The notes under the pieces: generated by a model | Seen by the model: only the letters and a program-made list of their open reading frames with translations | Told to the model about the DNA's origin: nothing | Databases searched by the model: none | Shown here: positions 14,638-63,306 of the stretch, one piece after another | Layout: every line of letters starts with the position of its first letter | Position numbering within the stretch: the stretch's first letter is position 1 | Source: Heteronotia binoei | Lineage: Eukaryota | Direction: 5' to 3' | Assembly: GCF_032191835.1 (NCBI RefSeq) | Contig: NC_083237.1 | Coordinates: 40,796,001 to 40,860,000, forward strand | DNA length: 64,000 nucleotides | Position numbers and translations under genes: made by a program

Positions 14638-15029
14638 TTCTCAATCTGGTTAAAAAGAAAAGAAAAGAAGCAATAATTTAACAGCAACTCATGAAATGAG
14701 ACATCTAGCAATTCTAAATTTAGTGCCATCAAACAGGAAGCACTATGTAACTGGACCATACTTGAAGTTTTATACATGATTGGGTTTTACAATGAATATC
14801 ATCTACAGTGTAGCAGAAGCAAAAAAGAAAAAAAAGTCCCATCTTCTGTTGACAATGATTGAAGCTGTGTTCACTCTTAGTTGGATATTGTACTATAGCA
14901 ATTGTATGATGCTGGATTTCTCTGTGTAGGAAAGACAGCCAGGAGATGAAATTGCTACAGGGAAATAACAATGCAATATCCAAAGAAGTGTGGATACAGC
15001 TTATATTTAAGATGAGGACTACGTATTAT

Positions 15030-23301: not shown

Positions 23302-23857
23302 GACTGATTTCACACTGGGCGTTTTTGCACTGACCTTTTACTGGCGCGACCACCCTCCTCACGCCAGCGGATCTGCAGGGATTTCGCACCAGAAGCGCCG
23401 GCGCAGCCAAAAGAGCCGGATACTTCCGTCGCGAAACCCGCTCAAACGTTTTCCTGCTTCTTGGCGGTTTCCGTTTGAGCTGGTTTTGCGACGGAAGTTG
23501 CCGGCTCTTTTGGCTGCGCCGGCGCTTCTGGTGCGAAATCCCTGCAGATCCGCCGGCGTAAGGAGGGTGGTCGCGCCAGTAAAAGGTCAGTGCGAAATCA
23601 GCCACTATGTTTGTTCCGGGTTGGAGAGCCCTTTTGCTACAGGGGCTTTACTCCATTTTTGCACAAGTTGCCCTGGAGCTGCGAGTTGCCACACTGTTAT
23701 TCTGCAGCAAGCAGAAACCGCTTGTCAACATATCCTGCTTGCTGCGGAATAGCAGCGTGGCAACTCATAGCTCCGGGGCAATTTGTGTGAAAATGGAGTG
23801 AAGCCCCGGTAGCAAAGGGGCTCTCCACTCCGGAACAAGTATAGTGTGAAATTGGTC
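23302..23857. mobile_element. Two nested PIF/Harbinger-type MITEs (outer 23302-23857, inner 23317-23603)
   Basis: Outer TIRs gactgatttcacact / agtgtgaaattggtc with flanks taa / tat; inner palindrome flanked by a 3-bp act duplication and related to 18932-19164 and 28050-28237. Confidence 0.8.
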
Positions 23858-24864: not shown

Positions 24865-25244
24865 TATTTTTGATATCAAATACATATAGTTATTGCAGGT
24901 CCTGAAATTCAATTTGATATAACATAAATAAGAAGTATTATATAAGCATACATTTGTTATGTATCTTTCCTTTTAGGATTAAAGTAAGGTGAACAGTTTT
25001 TATTTTAAATGAAATTGATAAGGTAGGCAATGGGTGTACAGCCCTCTGATACTACTGATTTCTACGTGCTTTCTTTGTTGTAAGTGTTAAAAATATATAT
25101 TGCCCCACTCCTCTGAGTGTTCATACCAAAGCTTCAATAAAATGAATATAAATTAGAGCAAAATGTAGATTCAGAGGGGAAAACCTCCAACAACTTATGT
25201 TCCAGCATTCAGGATGCAGCTATTGCAATTTCTAGATTCCTCGG

Positions 25245-28995: not shown

Positions 28996-31900
28996 GCTGG
29001 AGTGCGCGGTGAGGCTGGATCGTGGAGCCGAGTGTGCGGTGCCGAGGATGCCGGCAGCAACCAGTCGGCTGAAGGAGGCTGCCGCAAAGACGCAGTGTGG
29101 TGTGGCTGGCAACTGCTATGGGCGGAGTTTCCCACTGGCTTTTCAGGTGGAGTGGTGGATTTTCCTCTCTCCCGGGGCATTCCATTCCTGTGGGCACCCT
29201 CCCTGCATGCTGCCGACATTTGCTGGGGCGCAGATGTTCAGCTAAATTGACAGCCGGGAGTCTCACGACTACGAGACCCTGTTTGGGGCTCAAGTGGCGT
29301 CTGGAGGCCTGGTGCACTGGATTGCAGGGCGGTTCAGCTGCGACCTGAGACAGCTGTGGAACCTGTGGCAACCCTCCAGCTGGGAATCAGAAGGGCTTAA
29401 TCCAGATGGCTGAGGAGGATACGGGGGAGGTCTTACCCCCCCCCAGGTCACCTGAGCTGTCCAGTGTCCATCGGGCCCTTAGACAACACTACTGCACTTT
29501 AAAAAAACTGCATCTAAGACTGCACTTCAAGAACACTTTATGAGCAGCTGCACTTTAAAAAACAATCTGCACTATAATAAAAAGGATAACATCTGACATT
29601 TTAATATTACAGCACTCTTACCTAATGACTTCTAACCTTCCATACTCACTAAAATGAACATAGAATTATATTGCTGACCACTAAATTAATTGGGAAAAAT
29701 TGTATTAGTTAATTGGATTATTGTTAATTATTTAGCTTTGATGAATTTTATATATTTTTAGCAAATTAATTGATGGGAGATATTAACTGGGAGGGGTTTA
29801 TCTATTAAGGAGCTACTAATTAATTTTTTTTAAAAAAATAGCTAATCAATTAGAGGGGAGATTACAGGGTTGGGATTTTTAAATTAATTCACTATTAGAT
29901 TAAAATATTAGTGAGCTAGCCAAATTTGAATAGTGAGTGAACGGTGGGGTTGGAAGTTTTAACATCTAATAGGGTGGTGAGGGAGGTTGTATCCATGTTA
30001 GTGAAGGCCACACTGGATGCCCGTGAGGATGCCCGACCTGGGGATTCCAGTACTCCTGGGGAGGGGAAGGTATGACGGTGGGAGCAGACAGAATTATAAA
30101 GGAAGGAGGCTGAGACAAAATAGAGTTCGGCCCCCTTCCAGTCTGCATCCCATTCCGACGGTGACAGATAGTGGGGTCAAGAGGAATGGCCCGACTCCGT
30201 CATTGGTGTTATGTAATGGCAGGTCCATAAATAACAAGACCTTGACCCTTAGGGAGTTCCTGCTTAAGCAGGATGTGGACCTGGCTTGTGTGACCGAGAC
30301 CTGGGTGCAAGATGCAGAGACTGTAGCTCCCTCCCAGATGACCCCCCCAGGATACTCGGTCTTTCACCAATCACGGACTAGTGGGTGGGGGGAGGGGTGC
30401 CTCTATTTATACGAGAGGATTACTCCTTCCGGGCTCTCCCAGCTCCAATGATCAATGTTATCGAATGTGCCGGTCTGGTGTAGGATGTGGGGGAGGGGTT
30501 GGTGATCTGGCTGGTGTACCATCTGCCCAGCGCCTTACTATCCTTGATGGAGGCCGTGACAGACTGGGTATTGGAATACACAAGGCTTGTGATCTTGAGG
30601 GATTTCAATGTCCATGCCAATGACGCAGCCTCCAGTCAGGCAATGGACCTAGTGTCTTCCATGGTGACACTGGGACTCTCCCAATTTGTTGCAGCACCCA
30701 CTCACCAGGTGGGGCACATGTTAGATTTGGTCTTTGCGGCCGGGGTTCTGGTGAGCGGTATTACCGCTGAGGCAGTGCCATGGTCAGACCATTTTGCCTT
30801 CAAGGCTCGTGTAAATGCTCCATTCCAACCCTGTATGGGTGGAGAGCCTATTTTGGCTCGCCCGTGGAGTCTGATAGACCCTAAGCAGTTCCAAATGGCT
30901 CTGCGGGATCCCTGGCTCCCTGACGATTCCCTTGATGACCTTGATGACAGCTGATTATCCAGGGCCATCAATGAGATCGCACCTCGACGCCCTCTGCGCC
31001 CTTGTGTTAAGCTGGCTCCGTGGTATACCCTGGAGCTATGACAGCTGAAACAAGAGCTCAGATGGCTAGAGAGGCAATGGCGGCACACTTGAGACAAAAT
31101 GACAAGAACATCTTATAGAGTGTTTATGAGGTCCTATGAGATGGCAGTCAAAGCCACTGAGAAGGATTACTTTGCAGCTAAGATTGCGTCTGCAAATTCA
31201 CACCCGGTACAATTGTTTAGGATAATTGGGAACCTTACAACACTGCCTCAAGGCAGACCAAATGCTAGAGAATTAGAGATTGGCTATGTGGCTTTTGCAA
31301 AATTCTTTGCAGATAAAATCACGCCGCTCTGCCACGACCTCCCCGCCACATTGGATACAGTACAAGAACTCGAGTCTCCGTGCCTGTCTTCTGGTTCAGT
31401 TCTGGATCACTTTGACACACTTAGCTTGGGGGAAGTTGATGGAATCCTCTCTACTGTACACCCAACAACTTGCGATTTGGACCCATGTCCCTCTTGGCTA
31501 ATTAAATCTTGCCAGAGGGAACTTAGATGTCCTATACGGGACATTGTAAATAGATTCCTCTCAGAGAGACATTTTCCAACACCTCTTAAAGAGGCTGTGG
31601 TCTGCCCTCTCTTGAAAAAGATTACATCAGATCTGGCAAAATTGGCACATTATTGGCCAGTCTCAAATTTACCATTTTGGGGTAAAATCATTGAGAGGGC
31701 AGTAGCATTACAGTTGCAGAGTTTTCTGGATGACACTTCCATCTTAGATTCTCACCAGTCTGGCTGTCGCCCGGGTCATGGGATGGAGACAGTGCTGGTC
31801 GCCTTGGTGGATGATCTCCAGAGGCATTTGGATCGAGGTGGTGTGGCGGTGCTGTTGTTGTTAGAACTGTTGGCTGCATTCGATAAGGTCAACCATTGGT

Positions 31901-33211
31901 TACTGACCCGCCGCCTTGCCAACGCAGGGATTCGGGGGCTGGCCTTACAATGGCTTTCCTCCTTCCTTGATGGATGGGGACAAAGGGTGGCAATTGGGAG
32001 AGCATTGTCCCAGAGGCACTCATTAGATTGTGGGGTGCTGCAAGGGGCAGTGCTCTCTCCGATGTTATTTAACATCTACATGCGCCCCCTTTCCCAGATT
32101 GCCCAGAGTTATGGGCTTGGGTGTCATCAATATGTGGATGACACCCAGTTCTATCTACTAATAGACGGTCAGCCTGACTGCATCCCAAAAAATCTGGACC
32201 TAGCGTTGCAAGCCGTGGCAGGTCGGCTCAGGCTGAGTAGGTTGAAGCTAAATCCAATGAAGACAGAGGTCCTTTGCCTGGGTCATGGCAGTCTAGGAAG
32301 GGAAATCCCCCTTCCAGTTTTTGATGGTGCGCCAATGAAAGTGGTGCACAGGGTCAAGAGCTTGGAGGTTCTACTAGAGCCTTCCTTGTCAATGGAGGCC
32401 CAGATAGCAGCCACTGCCAAATCCGCTTTTTTCCATCTTAGACGGGCAAGGCAGTTGGCCCCCTTCCTGGAGCATCACAACTTGGCAACAGTGATCCATG
32501 CAACGGTCACCTCGAGATTGGATTACTGGAATGCCCTCTACATGGGGCTGCCCTTGTGCCGAACCCGGAAGCTGCAGCTGGTATGGAATGTGGCAGCTAG
32601 GCTATTAGGGCTCCCAAAGTGGGAGCACATACAGCCGGGGCTGCGCGAGCTGCACTGGCTGCCAGTTGTATACTGGATTCATTACGAAGTGCTGGTCATT
32701 ACCTTTAAAGCCCTATATGATCGAGGACCTACCTACCTTAGGGACCGTATCTCCCCATATGTGCACCAGAGAATACTGAGATCAGGTGCAAAGAATTGGT
32801 TGACAATCCCTGGGCCAAAGGAGGCCAAACTGAAGAGTACATGTGAAAGGGCCTTTTCGATCGTAGCTCCACACTGGTGGAACCAACTACCGGATGAAGT
32901 GCGGGCCCTGCGGAGTCTTGATCAATTCCATAGGGCCTGCAAGACTACCCTTTTCCGAATGGCCTTCATTTAATGGCCTTCATTTAGTCTACTATATCTG
33001 GTCATCAAAAACCACTGAGGAGAATATTCAGAATATAGCACTGCAAATGTTAGTTTTAATTGTAATTTGATTATTTTAATTATAATGGTTTTATTTAGCA
33101 AATTGTATATTGTATTGAAATAATGGTTTTATATTGTAAATTAAAATTTCATATATGTTGTGAGCCGCCCTGAGCTTGCTTTGGCGGGGAGGGCGGGATA
33201 TAAATAAAAGA

Positions 33212-34325: not shown

Positions 34326-34585
34326 AATATTAGGATTCCCATTACCCCTTTTAGCATCCGTGGACCTAAACCTGGAGTTGCCCCAACATTAAAAGAATGA
34401 TATCCATTTGACAGAAGACAGGAATGTCCCTCACTGAAATGGTCGATTGGCTGACTGCCAGTAGTGCCGACCCTCAAGGTAGGCCAGAAAGCACCCCAGA
34501 AGCAGAAGGGGAGGCAGATCAAGCTGGGCCAGAAGGGGAGACAGGCAGTACTATGAGGCAATCTCAGAGATATGGACTTTGTAAA

Positions 34586-35833
34586 TGTCAGACGATGGAA
34601 TTTTAAATCAGCCAGACCTTGAATTGTTGCAAAGTTAAGCTTTATTTGATAATCCATAAGTATCTGAGTGAAGGAGAAGATTGAGACTGATACAATGCGG
34701 CCTTAGGAGGCTGGCGCTGCTGGAGCAGCGCCCCGAGGCTGGCGGGCCTTGGGGGGCTGCTGGAGCATCCTGGCCAACTGGCCCCGCCAGCGGGGGATCT
34801 GTCAGCGCCGGTCCCGCTGGCTGGCCTCGTCCGAAGTCCCAGAGTAGCAGCTGGTCAATCTGCCTCTGCACCTCTCAGGTCATGAGAGTGGTGTTCGTGT
34901 GGACCTCGTCCCTGAGGTCTCTTTGCATCGCTCTCATCTCCTTTTTCATCTTTTCCATGATTTCCTCCCCCTTCAGGGGGCTCCTGTTTTCCCCCTTTGA
35001 ATCAGTCCCTCTGCCCCGCTCTTCGTCCGACCCAACAGGGTCCTTCTCCCTGTTGTCACGGTCCTGGTTGCCTCTGCTCCCCAGGTTTCCGCCCTGGCCG
35101 GGTCTGGTCAGTAGGTTCTCATGGTGCCCTGGGGCCTCATCCATCAGAGTGGTCGATGTTCTCGGCTGCCACTTCTGCGGGGTGATGGACAGCATCTGGA
35201 TGTGGAGGGGGGACCCTCCTTTTCTCCGAGCCCCGGTGATGTGCCAGGGGGGAGTTTTGACTTTGCTTAAAGGTTCAGCAGGTTCTCTGTCATCTGGAAC
35301 TTTTTCAGCCATCTGACTTAAAAGTGGCCGGTTCAGATAAGCCTTAAACTGGGATCAGTCTCAAAATGTCAGACGATGGAATTTCAAATCAGCCAGACCT
35401 TGAATTGTTGCAAAGTTAAGCTTTATTCGATAATCCATAAGTATCAGAGTGAAGGAGAAGATTGAGACTGATACAATGTGGCCTTAGGAGGCTGGCTATA
35501 TTGGGATACATCAAAGGGAACTATACAGAGCTACAATTCTAAACAGGGTTGAGGTGAGGTGCAACAATTCACATGGTCTGTCCCTCTTATCTCATTGTTG
35601 TTGCTATTCTTCCGGGGATAGTCAAGCAACTTTCCCTGGAGGTGCCTTATCTTCAAAGAGGGGAATTTCTGCCTTTGTTAGTATCAGGGAAGAGAAAGGT
35701 TCACACTGAGCATTGGTAATATCTGCATTCTCTACTTTGATATGCAAGGGCTTTTTCTCATGGTTAGTAACACAGTTCAAAGATGGCTACAGTTCAGCTA
35801 AGCAGTTTACCAGTAAAGTTACATCAGCTGACA
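34586..35833 (-). mobile_element. Internally deleted Tf1/sushi-type Gypsy element (family B)
   Basis: Full LTR 35367-35833 (tgtcag...ctgaca); gag N-terminus MAEKVPDD...TPQKWQPRTSTTLMDEAP homologous to the gag at 50602-52133; partial second LTR 34586-34715; flanks do not match. Confidence 0.85.
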
Positions 35834-38450: not shown

Positions 38451-38619
38451 TCCACATCCTTACCTGTCTGGTTAAAGGAAATGGATGAAGAGAGTAATAT
38501 TCACTACTTAAAAACAAGTGAAATGAGAGTGGGAAAACTTTAGTGAAAAGAAGCAGATTATAAAACATTTTATGGAAAGAAGTATAAACATAATATTTCT
38601 TTATCTCTAGATTTGATCC

Positions 38620-39573
38620 ATGGAAAAGAAGGTGTGGGACAACCAAACTACGGTTACAGAATTTATTCTTCTGGGATTTGGAGACAACCCAGATCTTCAG
38701 ATATTTCTCTTTCTCATAGTCCTGATTATCTACATGGTGACCATGGTTGGAAACATCCTCATTTTTGCTCTTGTTGTGGCTGACCAACACCTGCACACAC
38801 CCATGTACTACTTTCTGGGAAATCTTTCCTGCTTGGAGACCTTCTACAGTTCTACCATCCTTCCCAGGATGTTGGGCAGTTTCATGACTGGAAACAGATC
38901 CATTTCCTTCATTGACTGTTTTTTACAGATGTATTTCTTTGGTTCTCTTGCTGCAACAGAATGTTTCCTCTTGTCTGCCATGTCATATGACAGATACTTG
39001 GCCATCTGCAAGCCTTTGCACTATACAACCCTTATGAACAATAGAGATTGTCTCCATTTAATAATTGGGTCTTGGATAAGTGGTTTTCTAGGAAATAGCA
39101 TATTGTTTCCTCTGCTGCAGTTAACATTCTGTGGGCAGAATGACATTGATCATTTCTTTTGTGACTTCAACCCCTTGCTAAAATTAGCATGCAGTGACAC
39201 TCAAAAAATAGTCATTTTTGCTTTCATAATTGCTTGTATATTCACATTGCCTCCTTTTCTCTTGACTGTGACATCCTATGTTTGCATCATTACCACCATC
39301 CTGAGAATTCCCTCTTCTGTAGGAAGGCAAAAGGCTTTCTCCACCTGCTCCTCCCATCTCATTGTAGTTACCATTTTCTATGGGACATTGATGATAGTCT
39401 ATATGCTGCCCAAAACCCAAGCACTGGGAGATCTGAACAAAGTCTTCTCAGCATTTTACACGATCTTAACTCCTATGGTCAATCCCCTCATATACAGCTT
39501 GAGAAATAAAGAAGTAAAACAGGCCTTGAAGAAGGTTCAAGAGAAAATAATGCCAGCTAAATTCCTAAGCTAA
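38620..39573 (+). CDS. Olfactory receptor, class II (family 11/6-like), intact, 317 aa
   Basis: NQT glycosylation site; LHTPMYYF, MSYDRYLAICKPLHY, KAFSTCSSHL, PMVNPLIYSLRN; acceptor tttctttatctctag ending at 38610. Confidence 0.97.
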   Translation: MEKKVWDNQTTVTEFILLGFGDNPDLQIFLFLIVLIIYMVTMVGNILIFALVVADQHLHTPMYYFLGNLSCLETFYSSTILPRMLGSFMTGNRSISFIDCFLQMYFFGSLAATECFLLSAMSYDRYLAICKPLHYTTLMNNRDCLHLIIGSWISGFLGNSILFPLLQLTFCGQNDIDHFFCDFNPLLKLACSDTQKIVIFAFIIACIFTLPPFLLTVTSYVCIITTILRIPSSVGRQKAFSTCSSHLIVVTIFYGTLMIVYMLPKTQALGDLNKVFSAFYTILTPMVNPLIYSLRNKEVKQALKKVQEKIMPAKFLS

Positions 39574-41418: not shown

Positions 41419-42962
41419 ATGGCCCCCCCCAAAAAGTCAGGGGGTATTTAAGGGCAAGCAGCCCCTTAAGGGAGTGGCTAAGAGGCACACACCTATTGAA
41501 CGCCCTGGGGAGGAAGAGGAGGCATGCACCAGGCGAGCTATAATTGAGCAGCCTGGTGCGTTGGAATGGCAGCAGGGTTTGGACCCTGGGTCAACTGGGC
41601 TAGTCAGGGGCCATAAAGCAGCAAGGACTTCTACCAGGGCTTTCGAGCAGGAGGTTTTGACTTGTCTTTCTACTTTACAGGATATGGCCGCTCGGGGTGG
41701 TACTTCTGGAGAGCCGAGCCGGGATCCACCGGACAACAATTCCAATTCTGAGGGAGAGGGCAACACTCCGGATGGGGCAAGTCTCTCTGGGTGAGGCAGG
41801 GTTCTGGCACCGGTGGAGGTAGCAGTTAATGTCGAAGATCCAGATGGTAAGCATTGCAGTTCAGGTAATAATAGTGGGTGGCCCTGAGGGGGGGGGGGTT
41901 GGGGAGCCCCCTACATGCCAGGTTTGGCTGGCTCTACGGCTATGTTCGATCCTGATGGTGTGTGTGTGTGGGGGGTCACCTAACCTGCCCAGTGTTCCAG
42001 GAGCTTGGGTCCCTGGGGTTCAAGGGCAGGTCTTTCCTTGGGAGCCTACTCAGGTCTCTTTGACTGCTGCTGTGCAATCTACTTTGCAGGGGGCTCCGTC
42101 ACATCAGTTGTCGGTTGGGTCTTTACCATGGAAAAAACAACTTTATAGTCAATGGCCGGCTGAATGGCCAGCAGCGCAATGGGGTGGATGGGGTTTGGCC
42201 CCGACTCCTTATGGAGCAGTCTTTTTTCAGTGTCAACTGTTTGGGGACATCGCCATGCCCCTGGGTGACCATTTGACGGTTGCTACCAGGGAAAAGATTT
42301 TGTGTGGGGAGTATGTTGATGTCTTTAGCCTTCTTTATAGGGAGCTTGAGAAGAAGGACAAGGATGAACTAGAGGATAAGGACAAGGAGAAACTCAAACG
42401 GAGAAAGGTTGAGAATTGGGTTAACTGGTTGCCAGGGTTTTTGATTTATGCAGGGGTAATAGCGCGTGCACAGCCTCTACGGGCGGCACCGCTATTCCAA
42501 TATTGTGACATTATATACAAGGCTTATACGGACTTCTCGGGTGCTGCATGGTTGCAGTACAACGAGGAGTTCTGTATGAGGGTGGCATTGAACCCTGCAA
42601 TTCCCTGGAATCGGATTAAGCAGCAGCTGTGGCTGCAATTTATGTCTCCGGCTAAGCCTAACAGTGGTGACAGGTCTGACAGCGGTCATCTTGTGAGTAA
42701 ACAGGCGAGTGTAGTTGGTCCCCGCACAGCAGCGGGGCAGCCGGTTCAACCCCGGCTGCTGTGTTGGGAGTACATGTCGCAGGGCATATGCAACAGGAAA
42801 ACGTGTAAGTATAAGCATGAGTGCCCGCTGTCTGGGGGTTTGCATGCCTTATCAGCATGCAATAAATCCAAGCCCAGACCTGGGGGTAAGCGTCCAGGTG
42901 GCTGTGGGAATACCCAATCAGCAAACAAAGGGGCCCAGCCCCATCAAGCTGAGGGTACTTAA
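41419..42962 (+). pseudogene. Gag-like ORF1 of Ngaro copy 2
   Basis: ATG at 41419 (MAPP...KGKQPLKG after a frameshift); open stretch 41829-42962 with CWEY...CNRKTCKYKHEC finger. Confidence 0.8.
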
Positions 42963-44120
42963 GGACCTTTTGGCGGAGTACCCTAGGGCTGACGACAGGA
43001 AGTATTTGTGGGAGGGCTTTCTTTTTGGGTTTCATATTCCATTTCAGGGCCCCAGGGGACCCTTTCTGGCAAGGAATTTATGTTCAATTCAGGGGATGGA
43101 ACAAGTGGTGCGGGACAAGATAGGGAAGGAGTGTGCGGAGGGCTGTGTGTTAGGCCCTTTTGACAGTCTGCCTATCCTAAATTTGTGGGTATCCCCTTTA
43201 GGCGTTGTTCCGAAGAAGGCGCCGGGGAAGTTCCGTCTCATTCACTACTTGTCTTACCCAAAAGGTGGGTCGGTGAATGACGCCATTCACGATTTCCTAT
43301 GTTCAGTTCTGTATACCTCCTTTGACCAGGTGGTCAAAGTGATACGGAGTTGCGGTGTGGGGGCGGAGATGGTGAAATGCGACATTAAGTCTGCGTTTTG
43401 CCTTCTTCTTGTGCACCTCGATGACTTTGAGCTTTTGGGTTTATGTTCGAGGGCAAGTATTACATGGATAGGGCTTTACCTATGGGTTGCTTTATATCCT
43501 GTTCGGCCTTTGAGTGTTTTAGCACCTTTTTGGAATGGGTCCTGTGTAAACGGTCGGGCTCAGCTAATTCAGTTCATTATCTGGATGATTTCTTGTTTGT
43601 AGGCCTGCGAGGGTTGGGCCAGTGTGCCCGGCTGCTTCAGTCCTTTTTACGGCTGGCGGGGGACCTCGGGGTCCTGCTGGCCCATGAAAAGACGGAGAGC
43701 CCTTTACTGGTTTTGACCTTTCTGAGTATTGAGTGATTGAGCAGTGAACTATGTCGTAATTTGACATTTCTGGAGTTTTTCCAATAGTGGTAGCTGCTCA
43801 GCTGTGGGGGGCTGAGTTGGCTAATCATGTTGTGCATTTTTGGTGTGGCAAGCTGGCAGTAGTTCAAGTTATCAATACTCTGACTTCCAAATCTGTCCCA
43901 GTAATGAGCCTCATTAGGTCATTCACTTTACATTGTTTGTGCTTGGACATTTTATTTCTTGCTAAGCATGTGCCAGGTGTTTGCAATGGTGTGGCGGATA
44001 CTCTGTCTCACCGGCAGATGGAGCGATTTCGGCAGCTTGCACCAGAAGCCGAACTTCGGCCAGCACAGATGCCCACAGAGATGTGGCAGCTTGGAGAGTT
44101 GAGGCTGACTGGGTAATGCA
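42900..44120 (+). pseudogene. RT/RNase H of Ngaro copy 2, internally deleted
   Basis: PLGVVPKKAPGKFRLIH, KCDIKSAF, HYLDDF; deletion near 43736 relative to copy 1; LEFFPIVVAAQLWG. Confidence 0.88.
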
Positions 44121-44903
44121 GTTAGCTCTGGCACCCAGTACCAGGAAGGCCTATAATTGCTCTGTCAAGCAGTTTCAAGCATTTAGGGAACAGGTAGGGT
44201 TGGGCATGCTTTGGCCCATTCCAGCGTCACACCTCATGCAGTTCTGCATCCATTTGAAAGGTAAGGGGCTTGTAGTTAAGTCTATAAGGGCAAAGTTGGC
44301 AGCTTTGGCTTTTAACAGTAAAATAAAGGGATTTGCAGATGCCACAAGTGATTTTAAGGCTGCACAAGATGTTAGAGGGTTGGGCCCGGGAGCAGGGTCC
44401 TTGGCTCAACACAAGGCAACTCTTTTCTCCTTCAGTTTTAAAGGGATTGCATGCGGTGTGGTCCAGAGTTTGTACCTCTACGTTTGAGGCTTTATTGTTT
44501 CAGGCTGTGGCACTGATGGCTTTCTTCAGGGCACTCAGGGTTAGCGAGCTAGTGGTTAGCTCGCGCCACGACTGTTCTGGTTGTGCCCTTCATTCCGACG
44601 ACTTAAAATTTGATGGTGACCAGGTATCTATTAAGGTACGGAGGTCAAAAACTGAAGCAGAAGGGTGTTGTGATCACCTTGGGTTCGTGCCAAGACCAGG
44701 AAATTTGCCCAGTGCTTGCATTAAAGAGGTACATTGCCGTACGGGGTGAGGATGCGGGTCCCTTATTCTGCCATGAAGATTGGTCACCATTGACCAAGTT
44801 CCAGTTTTGGACGATCACCTCCAGGGCCTTGGAGAAGCTGGGGCTGGGTGGGGTCAGATTTAGGACCCACAAGGGTTATGTTCACCCATTGGACTCCCAA
44901 TAG
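44115..44903 (+). pseudogene. Tyrosine recombinase of Ngaro copy 2
   Basis: MQLALAPSTRKAY, FFRALRVSELV, RRSKT; deletion at 44870/44871 joins RTH to KGYVHP. Confidence 0.85.
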
Positions 44904-44978
44904 AGCCTGGATATGGGTGATGTTGTTCCCAGTGTTGGGATTGTTCACTTTGTTCCTTTCTATTTTCCAGGTGCTGTG

Positions 44979-45567
44979 ATGTGGCGTGAGAGGCTGAGGA
45001 TTTTGATCACCGATCATAGCATGGTGTTTTGGGTGGCCCACCAGGCGTGGCGTTCATCAATTAGATCTCAGTTGGGGCTCAACAAGTGGGCTGTGGTCTA
45101 GTGGCAGAGACGCTGGGGCCTGCGGTGGGCCAGGCTCCTGCCACTCCTATTCCAGGGGAGGACGGGTCCTCCGCAGCATGTTTTGGTTATCCACCTCGAT
45201 GGCAACGTTCTTGGCTTGCTGAAGGGGAGGGCCCTTTTACTGCAGGCAATTGAGGATCTTCGGGTTATACAGGTGGCCCGAGGTGCTGATTTTGTGGTCC
45301 GCCATCCTTCCTCGCAGGGTGTGGAGGGCTGCCTGGGATCCTGCGGGGATCGAAAGGGCTAGGCGCAAGGCCAATAGGGCGATCAAGAAGGCGCTATATG
45401 GAGGCCTTGGTGTTTACTTGCCACACCCTGCTATAAAGTCGGAGTTGGCAGACCTATATCAGCAGGACGGTGTCCACCTGTCTGTGAAGGGCAACAGGGC
45501 CTTTTTGCACGAACTACAGCTGGGGCTTCGGTTGGCCTTGGGCCAACCGGTGGGCGCAAGTGCCTAA
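44979..45567 (+). pseudogene. SGNH/GDSL-hydrolase ORF of Ngaro copy 2
   Basis: RILITDHS (block I, Ser at 45018), IHLDGN (block III, 45192-45206), DGVHL (block V, 45466-45480); one stop and a frameshift. Confidence 0.8.
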
Positions 45568-47779
45568 GCGGAGGCTTGGGATTGTGGTGGTAGGAGTTTG
45601 ATTTGGGCTATATAGGTAACCAGTGAATACCCTCAGTTTGTCCCTGTTTCAGGGGAAGTGGCGGGATGGGACGGCAGCTGGGCTGTACGGTTCTCTGCTG
45701 TGATGCCCGCTATAGGGTTCCCTCCTCTGGCAGGCTGCTCCTGTGTGTGTGACCTGGCCACTGGAGGGTATTCCTGGCCTTCGCCGGCCTGGAATTAGCC
45801 AGTACAAACTGGCTACTGCCGGGGGCTGGGTGGCTCGCCCTGTCTGGACAGGGAAAGGTCAGGGTTTCCCTTGGCCTGTCCGGTAGTTTAGGTTGCCCCA
45901 TGCCGTGGTTGTTCAATAAAGTTGCCCTGTTTGTTTATCCAATACACCGTGTTTGTCTCGTTCTTCTGACTGGGGGTGCAAACTGCCTTTTCCTTTCAGG
46001 TATTCTATTCAGATTCATCAATAGTAGGAAGTGGTCATGCCCAGCCTGGATTACACATTTTTCCTTTCCTTATTCAGCGTTTGCAGCTGCTTTACATTTA
46101 CATGGGACTCACTTCCTGCATCCACTCCCTCTCCCCCTACCACCTATATATGTCTGGCCAGTTTCTACATACCCTCCATACATTGGACAAAGAGAGCTGT
46201 GTTGTTTGAAAACTTATGCTACAACTAAATTTGTTAGTCTTAAAGGTGCTACTGGACTTTTTACTATTTTGCAGCAACAGACTAACATGACTAACTCCTC
46301 TGGATTTATGTTGTGTTGGAGAAACAAAAACAGACTGTGTAGGAGAAACAAAAAGAGAGTGGGAGACTAATACTTCAGGCACAAGAGTCTGCAGGATAGG
46401 TTAAATTTAGCTCCCCCTTCTATATGCTTGAAAAATAGATATGCATAAAGTTTTGCTTTAATTGTGCATGCTGGTTCATTTCCTCTCCCACTTAGAAAAT
46501 TATGCTGTTTTTCAATACAATAAACACATCTGAAAAATTTCATATTCTGTCTCAGTAATTCTGGTACTGTGAAGTGAAAAAGAGAACATTATACCTCCAC
46601 ATCAACAACGTCTCCTTCATCTCATACAAGTATATGTTGCTTTGTGGGTACATGTTTGTTCTTTGCTCTCATGTTTTGTGGGAAGGATAGAAGCCTTAAA
46701 TCTCAAATGTTCCTACTGAACATGTTAACAACACTCCAGGGTGCAAAATTTTGCTACTGTCACTGAAAAAAATACAACAGCAGCAGCAACAACAACAAAA
46801 AGCAGCCATCCAGGATTTAATACAGAATTTAATCCTGGATGAGTTACATGGCATATATTCCTAAATCTTCACTGGTGGGGGTTAGGCAGGCCTGTAGCGA
46901 CAATGGGTCCCCCAGGGGGAGCAAGTCACTCAATTCAATCCCACCTGCCATCTGTATGGCCCCTCCATTGGAGGGCCTCCAATCTGCCCCTTTTGCTCAC
47001 TGCCACTCTGACTGGGCCCCTGTGGCTGCTATGGTGGCTGACCCTTCCCAGCAGTTATGCCACAGGGATGGGGCTCACTCCTGGGATCACCGTACTGTGC
47101 CAGCATAGAAGAGCACCACGAAAAAGAGAGACCCTCCAAGCACTGGGGTGCCAAGAGAGGAAGCCTTCCTTGGAACAGAAAGAAGCCCCCGCTAGCTGGG
47201 TCCTCAATGGCCAGAGGCAGCAGGGGTCTTGGAATCTGAGGGGGGGGGCAGTTCATTCCAGGAGAGTGGGAAGGAGGCTTCACTTTTGTTTGGTCAGAGA
47301 GACTAGCAGGAAGAGACTTTGAATTGGCACTGTGTGTGTGTGGGGGGGGGGGAGAAACCTACATTCAGCTGAATTCCTCTGGAAGGTTTACTGAGTTATA
47401 CAAATGAGGGAGGGGGTGCTGTTGCTTTACTTGAAAAGCAGAGAAAGTAGGGGCCTGGCTCCCCCCCCAAAAAAAAAAATACTGCTGTGGGCTCTGCTAA
47501 AAATGAAATCCTGACTATGGCCCTAGAGTTAGGTTAACCTTTCCCAATTGCGTCTCCCTCAGAGTACTCAGTGATACATCATCATTGGTCTGAAGGTAAG
47601 GAGATAGTGACACTGTTTATCCCTTTAGCACTCTATCCCCTTTACACTGTGTGACATCAAGAACACTAGTGGTTTTGAAGCTGTGTACCTAATGTTGGGA
47701 TTGAAAGACATGTCACTATTAGTTTAACACCACCACTCCCCCCCCCCCAGTTCAGCAGTCTCACAGCCTGAGTTGATAG

Positions 47780-49683: not shown

Positions 49684-50124
49684 TAGGTGATCTTAGGACT
49701 TTTGAGGCTGTCTTATCAGGAACCGCTCAAGATTTTATGACCTTCTTGGCAACCATGGGCCTGTTTCAGGTAATAACTGGTTCTACACATTGTACAGGCA
49801 ATACTCTTGATCTGGTATTTTGATGGTTGGGAGGAATGTGATTTGAAGATAAAGGAATTGATGATGGTTCCTTTATCAACGATAGATCATTTTCAGGTTT
49901 ACACTGTCAGGGATACCAAGACTAGGCAGGGGTGGTGGATCTATTAAAATGATCCACTCCCAAAGCCAGATGGATACAAATGGCTTTCTGATGGATCTTG
50001 AAGATTTTTATGTTAGTATATATTTTGTGCCTTTCAATACGCTGGATGACCTCTAGAATGAAGAAATCACCCTGGGTGATTGACGTAACCATTTCTAGGT
50101 ACCTATGGACAATGAAGGACAAGG
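49684..50124 (+). mobile_element. Old L2 endonuclease fragment (host of the Gypsy insertion)
   Basis: AQDFMTFLATMGLFQVITGSTHCTGNTLDLVF, homologous to the L2 EN near 30640-30740. Confidence 0.65.
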
Positions 50125-50546
50125 TGTCAAGCATTGTATACTTATTCTCTGTTAAAGTATTCAGATTTTAAAAATGGTTACTAACCCTGAATTAAACCTA
50201 TGCACATCAAAGTAGCAACCCCCACCTTTCTTCTTTTGCTTTTACTAACAGATGCAGGAATGTTCTCTTTGAAGATAAGACCTCCTGGGAAACATTCTCA
50301 GGCTCCGACAGGCCTGAACCCAGGATGTGCTAGCCGCAATATAGATAAGGAGTCTAGCTTGTGAATTTCACACATTAATGTAGAATTGTTTATAGAACCT
50401 TTGATGTGCCATTTTAAAACATGTATTCTAGTATTACAAACTATCAGTTCCAATCTCCTGCTTGACTGAGCCAACATGGATTATAAATAAACCTAACTTT
50501 GTTTCAAAACCCAAGGACTGGTTATTTTGAAATCTCATGCTTCACA
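50125..50546 (+). repeat. 5' LTR of family A chromovirus
   Basis: tgtcaagc...gcttcaca; about 25 differences (about 6 percent, manual count) from the 3' LTR. Confidence 0.95.
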
Positions 50547-50601
50547 TTTTGGAACTGATCCTTTATTAACAGTTCATCTCACCTGGTAACTTTTAAGCCA
50601 G

Positions 50602-52133
50602 ATAGCTGAAAAAGCACCAGATAACAGAACCTATCGATCCATTCGAAGGAGTAGAGGCGCGGACCGCCCCCCCCCCCGGCACATCATTGGGACTCGGAGA
50701 GTCAGGGGGCGCGGATAGCCTCTGCACATACAACAATTGTTCATGACCCCTCAGAAGTGGGAACCACGCACCTCCACGGCATTGATGGATGAAGCACCAG
50801 CACGCCACAAAATCATCCTGTCAAGACCGGCACGAGGAGGCAGAGGTGGTGGGAATCCCGAGGAAAGATGGGAAGACTGCCCCATGAGAGACGAGGACGA
50901 GCGGGGTGGACCCCGGCCAGAGGAAGGCCGTCCAGCTGGGTCCGAGTCAGAGGAGGAAGATGGGGACAACCTGAAAGAACCAGACATCCTGGAGACCGTG
51001 AGAGGGGAGATGACTACCATGGCAAGGAAACTATGGGACGAGATCCAAGCTAATGCCACCTTCATGGCGCAAGAGATGCAGAGGCAGATCAAACGGCTGC
51101 TGAGGTGCAACCCAGGGAGGGCCCCGTTGGCTCCACCAGTTGCACTGGCACCAGCACCACCGGTACCACTGGCTGTGCTGGCACCCCAAGTGCCCCCAGT
51201 GGTACCTGGACAACCAGGAGGCCCCGCACCACCCCCAGGACCCCCGGCCCCTCGAGACTATGGGAGTGGTCGAGAAGTGGATGCTACCTTCGAAGGAGAC
51301 CCAGAAGAAGTAGAGTATTTCACCATTCAAGCCAATAGTTACATGCACTATTGGGGAAATACATTCCCTGATGAATTCAGCCGAGTGGACTACCTAGGGT
51401 CGAAGCTGAAGGGAGCAGCAAGAAGATGGTACGTAAGCCTGTATGAGACGAGGGGCCCTGAGCTCGACACAGTGGCCGGGTTCCTGCAGGCACTACTGAC
51501 TCAATATGAGGACCCCCTCTAAGAGACCCGGGCCATCACAGCCTTGTGCGAGATGTGGCAAGGGGTGAAATCTGTGCGTGAGTATGCAGCCGATTTCAGG
51601 GTCCACTCGGCCAAGGTTCGAGGGTGGAGTGATATGATGAAGATTGAAGAGTTCCAGAGAGGGCTGAATGTGAGCCTGCTGGACCGAGCCCTGCAGCAAG
51701 CCCGCCCTACCACCCTAGTGAGATGGGTACAGCTGGCAGGTGAAGTGGAGACTAACATGAAACTAGTAGCCCTCCAACACCAACTGCAACAAGGGGAAAA
51801 GGGGGGACGTGAGGCTTGGTCAGGGGCCAAGAGAGACGGGAAGAAGAGTGTGGCCCAGGGGGGGACACCCAAAACTCCCCCAGTGCGCAAATTCTTTTGA
51901 TGTGGCAACCCAAACCACTTAGCGGCCAACTGCTCAGAGAAACCTCGAGCCCCCCCCCGACTCCGAAGCCAACAGCGGTGGGACCGAAGAAGACTTCAAC
52001 CAGACCCAAGGAGTTGGTTCGGGGAAGCACCGCAATGTCGACTGTGCTAGATGAGGATATTATAGTTCTGGATGACTTCAGTGAGGGGTCTTGGGGAGCA
52101 GAGCCGGCAGAAAACGAGAGTGACCTGCACTGA
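50602..52133 (+). pseudogene. Gag (retrotransposon capsid + decayed CCHC knuckle)
   Basis: Start mutated to ATA (50602); DATFEGDPEEVEYF...SKLKGAARRWY; knuckle RKFF*CGNPNHLAANC; internal stops. Confidence 0.85.
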
Positions 52134-55100
52134 AAGGTGCCGGGAGGCAGGTCGTGGATCTAACGGCACCATTGCGGGTGAGAGGAACTGGATCTTTATT
52201 TTTTGTACCATTGACATTGCTGAAGCTAAAACGTTTTATCCATGCCCGAGCCCTAATTGACTCAGTGCACAAGGGAGATTATTACACCAAAACTAGTGGA
52301 TGCTTTGGGACTGGTGCAGAAGCCTCTGCCCCACCCAATCCAATTCGAAAAAATGGACGGGTCCGTAATGAGGGGGGAGCCTTGCGTAGAAGAGGCTCAA
52401 GGAGTACCTGTGGGAATAGAAAACCATTGGGACATAGAAATGTTCTGGATTGCCCCCTCATACTCATTTGACATAATATTGGGGGTAGGGTGGCTAGCTA
52501 AGCACCAACCAGACATACAATGGGGAGACCAAACAATAGACTTCACCGACAGAAGGTGCAAACACCATCACTGGTTGGGGGCCTGGGGGACTAATCCTCC
52601 CCCCAGGAATGAAAAAATGTGCATGTCGGTGGAAGAGATTCAATCCATCCCCAGAGAGTACAGAGACTTGCGCAGAGTGTTCAGTGAGGAGGAGGCGAAT
52701 GAGCATCTCCCACATCGAAGCACGACTGCGCGATCGAACTAATCCCCAGCCAGGAGCTGCCTAAAGCCAAACTGTACTCCATGGGGTGGGCTGAGAAGGC
52801 AGAACTGAGAAAATTCATAGACAAAAACCTCAAAAGAGGCTTTATCCGGCCAGCCACTGCCCCACATGCTGCGTCGGTGCTTTTCCGGAAAAAGGACAGG
52901 AGCCTAGGCTTTGCACTGACTTTCGTGGGATAAATGGGATCTCAATGTCCAACGCATATCCCATTCCCCTGATCAAAGATCTCCTGAGTACAGTGTCTGA
53001 AGGATCCATTTTCACAAAACTGGACCTGAGGGATGCGTACTTTAGAGTATGGATCAAATAGTGGGACGAATGGAAGACCGCATTCAACACACCAATGGGG
53101 CAGTTCGAGTACCTCATGATGCCTTTTGGATTACAGGGGGCTCCAGGAGTGTTTATGAACTTCATCAACGAGGTCCTGAGAGAGTACCTGTATAAGGGGG
53201 GGTCTACCTGGATGACATCGTTATCCATTCCAAAGACATGGCTTCCCATGTGCAGTTAGTGAGGAAGGTGCTCTCCATCTTGTAGGAGCACAAGTTGTTT
53301 GCTAAACTATCCATGTGTGAATTCCATCAAACCGAGCTTGGTTATCTAGGATTCAGAGTTTCCGGGAAGGGACTGGCCATGGATCCCGCTAAAATACAGG
53401 CAGTATTAGATTGGGCACCCCTGAGGACACGTTTACAATCTTTCCTCAGGTTCGCAAATTTTTATAGAACCTTCATTCAGGGGTTCGCCCAGGTGATGTT
53501 ACCCCTGACGGACTTGCTTAAGACCAAAGGGAAGGGGCCGGAGGCGAAAAAGCCGGGGGCGAAACTGGCATGGAATCCTGCCTGCCAAAAAGCATTCAAG
53601 AAACTTAAACGATTGTTCATGAGTGAACCAGTGTTAAGCCATCCCGATGAACTTAAGCCCTTTGTGGTTCAATGCGACGCCTCCGACGTGGCTGTAGGAG
53701 CCATATTAATGCAAAAGGATTCTGAAGGGAGATTATGACCATGTGCCTACATCTCTTAAAAAATTCTCACCTGAGCAGCGCAATTGGTCGGTGTGGGACA
53801 AGGAGGCGTTTGAAGTGACTTTTGCATTAAAAACATGGTGGTCCTGGTTGGAGGAAGCGAGGGTGCCATTTGAAATCTGGACTGACCATAAGAACTTAGA
53901 AGCATTGCCTGGTCGGAGGAAATTAACTGAAAAACAGATCTGGTGGGTGGGATTCTTTGCAAAGTTCGACTTCACTCTGAGACATATACCTGGGGCAAAA
54001 AAAATTCTTGGCTGACGCGCTGTCCAGACTGCCCTAACACAAGAGTCAGAGGGAGGAAGTGGTGGACTCCATCATCCCTCCCAGTGCAGTGGCCTGCGCC
54101 GTGACTACCCGGTCAGGGAAGAAAAAGGGAGCGCCAGAACCATGGGGGGGGGGGGCAATAGACTAATAGAGGAAACAGAACGGGAAGGCGAGAAAAAGCC
54201 ATAAGTGTTGATTAAAGGGACTGGGGTTATTTGGTACCACGATTGGAAACTATATGTCTCCAAAGTGCTGTGGCTAGAAGTTTTGCAACATTGTCACAGC
54301 AACAAACTATCTGGCCACTTTGGATATGTGAAAATGTTACACCTAGTCAAAAGGCAATTTTGGTGGCCTCAAATGAAAAAAGACATTTCAGAGTTTGTAA
54401 CTACTTTCCCAGTGTGCATAATGGCAAAAAGGTGTGGCCGACCCCCCCCCCCCCCCCCCAGTCTCCTTCAACCCACTCAAACTGCAGAACAGCCATGGTC
54501 CATGGTGTCTATGGACTTTATAGTGGAACTGCCAGTTTCTCAGGGCAGGACTGTAATATTGGTAGTAGTAGACACTTTCTCGAAGCAAGCGCATTTTATT
54601 CCATTCAAGAAACTGCCCACAGCAAAAAAACTTGCGTACTTATTTTTCCAACACATTGTTAAAGTCCACTCCTTCCACGATAAGGTCATTAGCGACCACG
54701 GGCCGCAATTCGTTGCCAACTTCTGGCGGGAGTTCTGCAAGTTAACAGGCATGGAACAGGGGTTGAGTTCCGCCTACCACCCTCAGATGGACGGACAGAT
54801 GGAACGCGTAAACACGCTTCTAGAACAATACTCACGGTGTTATGTGAACTATCAACAGACTAATTGGGTGGAACTATTGCCATTTGCAGAATATGGATAC
54901 AATAATAGTCTCCATAGCTCAACCAAAGCATCCCCATTTAAAATCATGAATGGTTATGAAGGAAAGCCATTTCCCCTGTTGCCGAGGGGAAACGGAACTG
55001 AACCCCCCTCTTCTTGTCAGCAATTGTGGGAGACTCTGGGGAAGGGATGGGCTATAATTCAAGAAAACTTGGAAGCAGCCAAACAGGACTATAAAGCACA

Positions 55101-55574
55101 CTATGGCAAAAAGCATACTCCAGAGTGGAACTTTAAAAGGGAGAAACTGTGTTTTTATCTACAAAGAACCTTCCCTTGCCACAAACCTCCAGGAAGCTGG
55201 CTTATAAATATCTGGGACCCTTTAAAATAAAGATAGTAATAAACAAAGTGACAGTAGAATTAGAGTTACCAAAACCATTTAGTAAAATTCATCCTGTTTT
55301 CCATTGCAGCCTTCTTTGGTGAGATCCGGGGGCTATGAGTTGGCACCCTCACCCGCCGGAGCCAAAACCTATTCAGGTGAAGGGTCAGAGTCACCATGAG
55401 GTGCAAGAGATATTGGATGCAAGAGAGAAAAGAGGGGTGTTATACTTCCTAGTACTCTGGAAGTATTTCCCCCCGAGTTGTGATGAATGGGTAAAAGCAT
55501 CCGACCTCCAGGCCCCGCTCCTCCTCAAAAGATTTTACCTGCTGCACCCAGACAAACCCCGAGCAAGAGCTTAG
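52109..55574 (+). pseudogene. Pol (protease, RT, RNase H, integrase, chromodomain)
   Basis: ALIDS, TKLDLRDAY, VYLDDI, VQCDASDVAVG, H...GHFG (IN zinc finger), SMDFI, ISDHGPQF, EVQEILD...YFLVLWKYFPPSCDEWV; multiple frameshifts and stops. Confidence 0.92.
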
Positions 55575-55586
55575 GAGGGGGCAGTA

Positions 55587-56007
55587 TGTCAAGCATTGCA
55601 TATTTATTCTCTGTTATAGTATTCAGATTTTAGAAATTGTTACTAACCCTGAATTAAAGCTAAGCACATCAAAGTAGCAACCCCCACCTTTCTTCTTTCG
55701 CTTTTACTAACAGATGCAGGAATGTCCTCTTTGAAGATAAGACCTCCTGGTACACATTCTCAGGCTCCGCCAGGCCTCAACCCAGGATGTGCTAGCTGCA
55801 ATATAGATAGGGAGTTTAGCGTGTGAATTTCACATGTGAATGTAGAATCGTTTATAGAACCTTTGATGTGCCATTTTAAAACATGTATTCTAGTATTACA
55901 AAGTATCAGTTCCAATCTCCTGCTCGACTGAGCCACATGGATTATCAATAAACCTAACTTTGTTTCAAAACCCAAGGACTGGTTATTTTGAAATCTCATG
56001 CTTGACA
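55587..56007 (+). repeat. 3' LTR of family A chromovirus
   Basis: tgtcaagc...gcttgaca, preceded by the PPT. Confidence 0.95.
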
Positions 56008-56865
56008 CAAGGGAGACTTTAGTAGGTGGCAATCCTTCCTATTAGTCTCTCCAGGATCCTTAATTTACATTTTCTGGAAGAAATGCCTCACATCCCGATT
56101 GGCTGGTTCTAAGAGAATGGCCAATCAGAATGCTGGCATCAGGATACTGGAGAGTAATGGAATCAATTTTGGGGGAAACTCTCTGACACTGTAGAATTTT
56201 CACCCAAATTGCTAGAGCATCCCCTCACAAAACCATATAGTTTCCCCAAAATTGTTAGACTGTCTCCACATGACATGCCTGGCATGACAACATCACTTCT
56301 GGGTGATGTAATCACACTCTGCATACTGCACATTACAGAGCTCTTTGGGGGTCAGGATCCCCTTGGCGGCCTGCTCTGTGCAGGTGGGTTGGAGTCCTCA
56401 AAACTGGGGGAAACCCCACCTCCAGTGGGAGCTTGAAAAGTGTAGTACAGCTTGCATTACTTTTGTCCATGCAGGTTCCACAATTCCCAGCAGAGCCTTT
56501 GCGGATGGCCAAAGAGTATATTTCCTCTCCTTTTACCAGAAGAAAAGCTGGCTATATCTAGCCCAACGTACAGATTTTCCAATGTTAATATGAGCTGGAC
56601 TCACATGGTCTATATACAGTGAATTTTCCTGACACACACATGGTAGATACTGATAGCTCTGATAAAGTCAATTTATCTGCTGTGCAGAAGAAGGGAAAGA
56701 CTGAATAGATTCACTTGTCCCTCACCTCAAAGATGTGATAACCACTACTATTGGTCAGTGAACTGCATGCTTTCCTAGTTAGTTAGAAAGCACTTTTTTT
56801 ATTCCAAGTAGCACATGTTTGCACATAGTACCAGAAGCTGATGTAATATTAGTAAGTGACAGTAG

Positions 56866-57460: not shown

Positions 57461-57710
57461 TCTTCTCACTCATCCAGCCAGGGAAATGGGACCCACTGAA
57501 CCTTCTGCATTTATACATTTGTCAAATTTCTGCATTTGTACAATTATTAAAGCTTACATGAAGGAGCGTCTTTGCCTCCTGCAGCTTCTCCACTGAATCA
57601 CATTGCGACTCAGTTAATTTTTGTCCTGCAGACCTGGGAATAAACTTTCTCAGGTCAGAAAAGACCAATATAGGTAGGAGACTTCTTCCCCAACTGTCAC
57701 TCTTACAACT

Positions 57711-58518
57711 TTAGGGTTTGTAGAATCTTTCGGGATCAAGTGCCGTGTTCTACTGGAGAAAGTTTTCCTTCCAGACGTTTCGTTCTCAGCTGCGGAGAAC
57801 ATCCTCAGTGGCGTTGCAGCTGGAGCAGGAGCTCAGACCTTCTTGGCTGCTGTGCATTGAGTGGGGCCAGGGCTGCTGGAGAGCTGCTATTTGTAGGCTG
57901 GAGGGGGTGTGATGAAAGGGCAATTGTTTTGTGGATGTGCCTATTGTTTGGTGGGGTTTCCTGGAAGGGTAGTAATAAGGAAACTGGCTGTTGAATGTGA
58001 CCATTGTTCTGTGTTAATTGCTGGGAAGGTTGGAAGGGGTTTGAAGATAAGGAAGATGGTTGTTGACTGTGCTGATTGTTCTGTGGAACAATCAACCAGC
58101 AAATTCCACAGAACAATCAGCACAGTCAACAACCATCTTCCTTATCTTCAAACCCCTTCCAACCTTCCCAGCAATTAACACAGAACAATGGTCACATTCA
58201 ACAGCCAGTTTCCTTATCACTACCCTTCCAGGAAGCCCCACCAAACAATGGGCACATCCACAAAACAATTGCCCTTTCATCACACCCCCTCCAGCCTACA
58301 AATAGCAGCTCTCCAGCAGCCCTGGCCCCACTCAATGCACAGCAGCCAAGAAGGTCTGAGCGCCTGCTCCGGCTGCAACGCCACTGAGGATGTTCTCCGC
58401 AGCTGAGAACAAAACGTCTGGAAGGAAAACTTTCTCCAGTAGAACACGGCACTTGATCCTGAAAGATTCTACAAACCCTAATGATGTTACCAGCCGTGAA
58501 AACCTGAATTCTTTGATA
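57711..58518. mobile_element. Penelope-like fold-back insertion with about 375-bp inverted arms
   Basis: Arms 57712-58088 and 58104-58478 around a 15-nt loop; 3' extension aatgatgttaccagccgtgaaaacctgaa; 12-bp TSD actcttacaact (57699-57710, 58519-58530). Confidence 0.85.
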
Positions 58519-61287: not shown

Positions 61288-61422
61288 TAATATTTTTGTT
61301 GCAAAAAGTCTCTGGACTGCAGAAAATTAAAAAAAAAAAACAAATGCTAAATTAACTGTCATCATTTCTTCATTCAATTTATTAACAAAAACTACCCCTT
61401 TTCTGCTATCTGCTTCTTCCAG

Positions 61423-62397
61423 ATGAAGAAAATCATTTCACCAAAACCAACCAACTTTACCGGAGTGACTGAATTTGTCCTTCTGGGTTTAACCAATCAT
61501 CTTGAACTGCAGGTGTTGTTGTTCATTGTATTTCTCTTGGTATACATAATCATAATGGTGGGTAATTTGCTAATTTTCATTATGATCCTTGTAGACCCAT
61601 CTCTTTACACACCAATGTATTTCTTTCTCAAGGTTCTCTCCTTCTTGGACATCTGCTACTCTTCAGTTACCCTCCCCAAAATGCTAGTGAATTTCCTGTC
61701 TGAGGACAAGAGAATTTCCTATATTGGCTGTGCTACTCAAATGTTCTTCCTGCTTTTCCTAGGGGCTTCAGAATGCTTCCTCTTGGCAGCTATGGCCTAT
61801 GATCGGTATGTAGCCATATGCAAACCACTGATGTACATGACCATCATGAACGAGAAATTTTGCCTTTCACTAACAGTTCTGTCATGGTTCTTTGGCAATT
61901 TGGTATCTTTGCTTCAGACAGTTTGGGTTTTTACTCTGCCATTTTGTGGATCAGATAAAATCAACTATTTTTTCTGTGATATACCGCCCCTCATCAAACT
62001 TTCTTGCATTGACACTTCTTCATATGAGATGCAGCTCTTTACAGCAACAATCCTAGTTATTTTGACACCCTTTTCCTTCATTGTTGTGTCCTACCTTCTG
62101 ATTATTTACAACATTTTAAAAATGGCAACAGTGGAAGGCCGTCAGAAAGCCTTCTCCACCTGCTCTTCACATCTCTTGGTGGTGACTTTGTACTATGGGA
62201 GTGGCAGCTTGGTCTACCTAAAGCCCAAATCCATTCATTCACAGGACAGTAACAAAGTGTTGGCTTTGATGTACACTGTCATCACCCCCATGTTGAACCC
62301 AATTATTTACAGTCTAAGGAACAAAGAGATCAGTGAGGCAATGAAGAGGATGGTGAACAAGGCAAAGAATCGAAAAATACTTTTCCATGGGACATAG
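61423..62397 (+). CDS. Olfactory receptor, class II (family 10-like), intact, 324 aa
   Basis: NFT glycosylation site; LYTPMYFF, MAYDRYVAICKPL, KAFSTCSSHL, PMLNPIIYSLRN; acceptor cttcttccag immediately before the ATG. Confidence 0.97.
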   Translation: MKKIISPKPTNFTGVTEFVLLGLTNHLELQVLLFIVFLLVYIIIMVGNLLIFIMILVDPSLYTPMYFFLKVLSFLDICYSSVTLPKMLVNFLSEDKRISYIGCATQMFFLLFLGASECFLLAAMAYDRYVAICKPLMYMTIMNEKFCLSLTVLSWFFGNLVSLLQTVWVFTLPFCGSDKINYFFCDIPPLIKLSCIDTSSYEMQLFTATILVILTPFSFIVVSYLLIIYNILKMATVEGRQKAFSTCSSHLLVVTLYYGSGSLVYLKPKSIHSQDSNKVLALMYTVITPMLNPIIYSLRNKEISEAMKRMVNKAKNRKILFHGT

Positions 62398-63126: not shown

Positions 63127-63306
63127 CAGAGCTTTTTTGTAGCAGGAACTCCTTTGCATATTAGGCCACACTCCCCTGATGTAGCCAATCCTCCAGGAAC
63201 ATACAGGGATCTTTTACAGGGCCTATTTAAGCTCTTGGAAGATTGGCTACATCAGGGGTGTGTGGCCTAATATGCAAAGGAGTTCCTGCTACAAAAAAAA
63301 GCCCTG
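63127..63306. mobile_element. hAT MITE, complete and near-palindromic
   Basis: About 70-bp inverted arms; perfect 8-bp TSD gtgcagag (63119-63126, 63307-63314). Confidence 0.92.

Follow-up and report, generated by a model that had tools for sequence, protein, structure and literature searches.

Reverse transcription primed by the first bases of an element's own RNA has been shown by experiment for the fission yeast retrotransposons Tf1 and Tf2 (Schizosaccharomyces pombe), and is predicted from sequence for their vertebrate relatives. The mechanism of Tf1 is described in two papers (PMC7175516, PMC5341516). Self-priming is likewise described for yeast and vertebrates in PMC6317226 and PMC4600332, and a preprint treats it as a trait that the members of the Tf1/sushi group have in common (bioRxiv 10.1101/2022.12.06.519325). 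From complementarity between primer-binding site (PBS) and LTR alone, as here, it has been predicted for Tj1, Tosmo1-3 and Tcry1 of fission yeasts and for plant Tcn1; Tj1 was shown to transpose, which the two gecko elements presented below cannot do, and the hosts differ. Chromoviruses are reported from reptile genomes in PMC3670739. In a literature search for which most primary papers were out of reach, no lizard chromovirus with a described PBS came up; Butler et al. 2001 may cover such cases.

In the 64-kb stretch of gecko DNA analysed here (the window, to which all coordinates refer), two LTR-retrotransposon copies, A and B, display the trait of the Tf1/sushi group, a PBS complementary over at least about 10 nt to the element's own LTR: the match is 11/11 in A and in B. 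This PBS-LTR complementarity is well above chance. We consider it highly probable (roughly 0.88), judging from the sequences of these copies and of related elements, that in the A/B lineage, as in Tf1, the leading 11 bases of the element's RNA served as the primer for its reverse transcription. In contrast to Tf1 and Tf2, the gecko copies are dead and known from sequence alone, their primer sequence is unrelated and their host is different.

Element A (50125-56007, plus strand) is a decayed, dead chromovirus, present in one copy in the window. Its 5' LTR (50125..50546, 422 nt, TG...CA ends) is 94% identical to the 3' LTR (55587..56007, 421 nt; K2P 0.062), and the target-site duplication CAAGG flanks both LTRs (50120-50124 and 56008-56012). 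Domain matches identify stop-interrupted gag remnants with DUF4939 and Retrotrans_gag (50719..51900), followed by pol remnants with stops and frameshifts (52266..55571), in which protease, RT, RNase H and integrase stand in Ty3/gypsy order, an arrangement seen in A only, as B is without pol. A chromodomain (PF00385, E 6.7e-08) lies C-terminal to the integrase at about 55398-55535, and a polypurine tract (55573..55581) immediately 5' of the 3' LTR. With TG...CA LTR ends, target-site duplication and polypurine tract, all of these chromovirus (Ty3/gypsy) features are present in A.

In an integrase-only tree of 144 sequences (FastTree, midpoint root), A groups with three squamate proteins, two from snakes and one from a gecko (support 0.988). 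The clade enclosing them (91 tips, support 0.94) further includes one protein from a pipefish and one from Neonectria, and plant-named proteins fall outside it. A is thus placed by its sequence as a chromovirus of the fungal/vertebrate clade. This is the integrase clade of the Tf1/sushi group (sushi-ichi of Takifugu; the GyDB fungi/vertebrates cluster), a correspondence to be read with the composition of the tree, which includes neither a Tf1 nor a sushi-ichi reference. The domain set of that group is the same as that of A as well, including the DUF4939 gag and the chromodomain.

The PBS of A (50549-50559) begins 2 nt past the 5' LTR end at 50546 and, as the earlier note had recorded, is the exact complement of an LTR 11-mer at 50443-50453 and of its second copy in the 3' LTR at 55905-55915. 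This 11-mer has its first base 104 nt ahead of the LTR end and would represent the RNA 5' end and self-primer. A TATA-like box, TTTTAAAA (50412-50419), lies at -31 to -24 from this predicted RNA start, so the spacing of 24-31 nt given before also stands, and the box presumably acts as promoter. The box is confined to A, and B has just ATATA at -29.

Element B (35812-34586, minus strand) is an internally deleted, dead copy without pol, again the only one in the window. Its full 5' LTR (35367..35812, 446 nt) is homologous to that of A and is followed, after a 2-nt spacer, by a PBS without TGG (35354-35364). This PBS pairs 11/11 with the LTR 11-mer on the minus strand (35472-35462), which starts 106 nt before the LTR end, and is also complementary to 34691-34681 in the 3' LTR remnant (34586..34715, 130 nt, 97% identity to the 5' LTR). 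TG...CA ends and a 5-nt target-site duplication (35813-35817 and 34581-34585) are present. Leader and gag start (34716..35353) are 68% alike to A in aligned columns. The internal deletion took pol, the polypurine tract and most of the 3' U3; because pol, and hence the chromodomain, is missing, B can be classed as a chromovirus only by its homology to A. At the deletion junction (34715-34740, minus strand), gag is joined to U3 at a short common motif, a near copy of which occurs about 25 nt earlier in gag, and the deletion looks microhomology-mediated from this sequence. Two other readings of B were rejected: the full 5' LTR and the target-site duplication rule out a miniature element with 130-nt LTRs, and a plus-strand orientation is ruled out by the gag remnant, which sits on the minus strand.

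The earlier note described the LTRs of A and B as otherwise dissimilar, which is wrong. They align with 280 matches in 392 columns (71%; 59% with gaps counted) and a score of 322, compared with a maximum of 175 among 100 shuffles. Likeness amounts to about 70-76% in each of U3, R-U5 and leader, and to 68-71% of aligned positions over leader and gag start. A and B are evidently, by their sequences, two dead related copies of one gecko LTR-retrotransposon lineage. Three of the claims made before need qualifying. The spacing shared by both is real (104 nt in A, 106 nt in B, before the LTR end) but inherited, since the LTRs are homologous. The phrase "two chromovirus families" fits A, which has a chromodomain, but extends to B by homology only, and each "family" is one copy. 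Finally, the compensatory change had been presented as direct sequence support for self-priming; the support is indirect, and the A/B comparison alone is thin.

The compensatory change itself is as described: B differs from A at duplex positions 7 and 8 on both arms with pairing kept, a U-A pair becoming C-G and the adjacent C-G pair becoming U-A. By position alone, the odds that two changes land on positions that pair are 1 in 55, and no double changes were left when the partners were slid by 1-3 columns. The covariation score was matched by 27/500 column shuffles. As A and B are homologous, they provide just one comparison, and the two adjacent changes may have been one event. As for the extent of the match, a reach of 11 nt was found, for A and B alike, in 0/200 LTR shuffles, 0/20 foreign LTRs and 0/50 decoy windows. 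Across both strands of the window, 14/1307 sites resembling an LTR end (TNWCA) have such an 11-nt complement, namely A, B, nine sites in one long palindrome and three others.

The related elements extend this comparison. Related loci were taken from three collections, with 67 distant viral loci that matched in RT and RNase H only left out. The search for LTR pairs covered 158 loci together with A and yielded 51 that are flanked by a direct repeat. B brought the number to 52; ahead of any pairing test, 31 of these were set aside (24 for a contig end, three for identity below 80%, four for lack of a CA end), so that A, B and 19 more elements with repeat-defined LTR ends remained. Fifteen of the 19 belong to A's clade, one of them (L032) placed there by its identity of 130/175 to another (L007). 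A perfect PBS-LTR match of 9-12 nt, starting 1-2 nt after the LTR, is present in 12 of these 15, with 11 different sequences; the same match length was reached for these loci in 0-6 of 60 shuffles and in 0-1 of 20 foreign LTRs. The three in-clade loci without a match are L166, L187 and L189. None of the four plant-side loci has such a match, and none exceeds 7 nt. The L007/L032 pair is a second homologous pair with a compensatory change, from U-A to G-C.

Several features define the reach of these comparisons. The 19 relatives include no squamate element, and L003 is possibly a chimeric contig. In a second set, whose LTR ends were guessed from terminal repeats and are uncertain, the match occurs in 2/6 in-clade and 0/7 other loci, and in a boundary-free scan of 114 loci self and cross matches overlapped. 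A TATA-like motif, from a list broadened after the sequences had been inspected, starts at a distance of 27-31 nt 5' of the partner arm in five elements, namely A, B and the nearest relatives L003, L006 and L181; such a motif is found at 2-13% of LTR positions. From the 11-mer to the LTR end, A and B span about 105 nt, in contrast to 316-415 nt in these three. Scans for closer relatives recovered no further squamate elements with DNA context; a degenerate DNA pattern from motifs common to A and B had 0 matches in the metagenome collection, and gag searches returned one gecko match and 139 distant matches, none with DNA context.

Two loci outside the counted sets may be mentioned here. L162, near the pipefish protein, has by eye a 10/11 PBS-LTR match with one A-C mismatch (about 80-95 and 625-640), and the 3' LTR of L209 carries the LTR 11-mer of L162. 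In the prokaryote collection, eukaryotic chromovirus contigs (L160-L248) occur in many bacterial and archaeal genome bins, likely as binning contamination.

RNA folding was assessed on two decayed copies, with a program that cannot model pseudoknots. When R-U5-PBS segments are folded from the 11-mer, the duplex forms with z scores of -4.0 (A) and -3.5 (B), and adding 60 nt of U3 does not impair it. Its pair probability is 0.87-0.94 for A in folds of 125-600 nt; for B it is 0.00-0.51 in folds of at least 200 nt begun at the 11-mer, where it is outcompeted. Inside lies an irregular stem with AATAAA, in which A and B differ by two double and three single changes. Against shuffles this stem is weak in A (15/200 as good) and reaches 4/200 in B, and it was not recovered in a four-LTR alignment. 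In A, this predicted R-U5 stem-loop (50475-50539, plus strand; AATAAA at 50486-50491) is a candidate equivalent of the U5-IR stem. Compared with the three-duplex "pretzel" of Tf1, the central duplex is thus present in A and B and the inner stem partly so; the third helix, 3' of the PBS, was not found, as shuffled flanks did equally well in 61 and 74 cases out of 200. The predicted stem hides AATAAA in A and in B (35440-35375, minus strand), and this burial might dampen use of the poly(A) signal in the 5' LTR if the model holds.

Under Tf1-like self-priming, the transcript would begin with the 11-mer, some 30 nt past the TATA-like box, and the RNA 5' end would fold back on the PBS across an R-U5 stem-loop of roughly 95 nt. 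The RNase H of the element's RT would then cut past base 11 to create a free 3' OH, from which RT would extend the primer through the 2-nt spacer, U5 and R before jumping to the 3' R. A plus strand started from the polypurine tract would copy the primer back as PBS, so that 11-mer and PBS could drift together. The proposal of the earlier note holds as the most likely reading, backed by the related elements and the integrase tree; its evidence is indirect, and the RNA start is a predicted one.

One rival to this reading is priming by a tRNA fragment: elongator tRNA-Met, cleaved in its anticodon loop, would yield a 5' half that might sit on the PBS of B, and a tRNA CCA end might sit on the TGG of A. 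For this test we used 31 antisense probes against mouse tRNAs, published in supplement 5 of PMC7428014, which are not gecko sequences and lack Gln, Pro and Ala. Nine nt of the PBS of B (10 if one G-U pair is allowed) match the Met-CAT probe exactly, in the region of the anticodon stem-loop, the PBS core of A occurs in 0/31 probes, and neither PBS matches a tRNA 3' end in this set. A tRNA-fragment match had been named beforehand as an observation that would speak against self-priming; it exists in part for B (9 nt, a tRNA-Met half) but not for A. A precedent is provided by the copia elements Osser, Bryco and Bianca, for which half-tRNA priming is described in PMC6317226 and which, like B with its 9-nt tRNA-Met-half match, lack a TGG-type PBS. 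These are Ty1/copia elements, whereas those studied here belong to Ty3/gypsy, and A, which has no such match, pairs better with its own LTR, as does B. The TGG that a tRNA CCA end would need stands at offset 3 of the post-LTR sequence in A, but is absent from B, and ARAGORN found no tRNA genes in the window. A 9-nt match is expected in about one of 20 tries with 31 probes of about 73 nt, and the PBS of A mismatches the tRNA-Met half and pairs 11/11 with its own LTR. The hypothesis would also leave unexplained why the LTR 11-mer changes along with the PBS, and why 11 different PBS sequences of relatives each match their own LTR. Because of this expected frequency, the misfit to A and the covarying 11-mer, we regard tRNA-fragment priming as very unlikely.

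Just as improbable is a purely structural role, in which the duplex is an RNA helix that closes R-U5 for packaging, translation or poly(A) control, with the transcript starting upstream and another primer in use. Such a helix would suit a duplex that closes a long stem-loop covarying between A and B, with AATAAA buried inside, and that is unaffected by added U3. It would not account for one arm always lying 1-2 nt after the LTR end, the primer's place, with no alternative primer site present, nor for the TATA-like motif that precedes the other arm, at about -30, in the five nearest cases. Internal G-U pairs are moreover absent from the duplexes; in the neighbouring inner stems they occupy 5/38 cells. 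Chance, or a single local inverted duplication without function that A and B both inherited, has little left in its favour beyond the common ancestry of A and B and the frequency of inverted repeats in the window; at each of the two changes the opposite arm is altered to match, and the arrangement reappears, with unrelated sequences, across the clade but not outside it. This geometry of the relatives has largely refuted the idea already, and we give it next to no weight.

Self-priming thus remains our preferred reading, and it raises a possibility about how the duplex evolves. The PBS might be rewritten from the self-primer in each cycle, so that a mutation in the LTR 11-mer passes to the PBS without a second mutation; we hold this tentatively, as somewhat short of an even chance. 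Plus-strand synthesis would turn the 11-nt RNA primer into PBS sequence, and in Tf1 the primer is reported to be copied to give PBS DNA in single-stranded form (PMC11042837). We infer that the copied primer would be fixed at the internal PBS via the second strand transfer, and if so, covariation would be partly automatic. Rewriting would leave the duplex free to drift between families and yet keep it purely Watson-Crick, and it would account for the L007/L032 swap from U-A to G-C, which has no wobble path. No G-U pair occurs among the 22 duplex pairs of the window, and none inside the 119 pairs of the 12 relatives, where there is one terminal G-U; nor was a longer duplex found at these PBS-LTR sites when G-U was allowed. 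Strict selection for perfect pairing fits these data equally well. No account of PBS rewriting from a self-primer was found in the literature, most primary papers being out of reach.

If rewriting is true, the gecko pair is a natural record of a rewriting ratchet in an amniote. Covariation that comes from templated primer copying would be evidence for self-priming, and no measure of selection on the helix. As to self-priming itself, the gecko lineage is an instance of a trait already expected in the Tf1/sushi group, which it confirms without opening a new question; what the A/B pair adds is a clean case of natural compensatory change in a lizard, together with the prediction of an exact RNA start.

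The surrounding sequence belongs to a gecko olfactory receptor cluster. Four open olfactory receptor frames (Pfam 7tm_4) lie at 13687-14640 (minus), 23905-24972 (minus), 38617-39573 (plus) and 61351-62397 (plus), and the ORF at 38617-39570 has 92-95% identity to proteins of four geckos, against 81-84% for other lizards, which bears out the earlier note's mention of a reptile. A TRIM-like exon with a RING and B-box frame occupies 749-1510 (minus). Other mobile sequences are present as well: 3922-8606 and 41428-45976 are two opposite-strand copies with about 78% identity, an RT and a weak tyrosine-recombinase N-terminal match, from which we infer a DIRS-like element, and an open frame of 626 codons with an RT domain at 31093-32973 (plus) is probably a non-LTR element. 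Long palindromes occur at 57705-58487, 9903-10189, 23311-23609 and 63133-63298, the first of them with 384-nt arms that are 98% complementary around a 15-nt loop. The sole Rfam match in the window is a degraded 5S rRNA-like piece just over the threshold (13308-13425, plus), possibly from a 5S-derived repeat.
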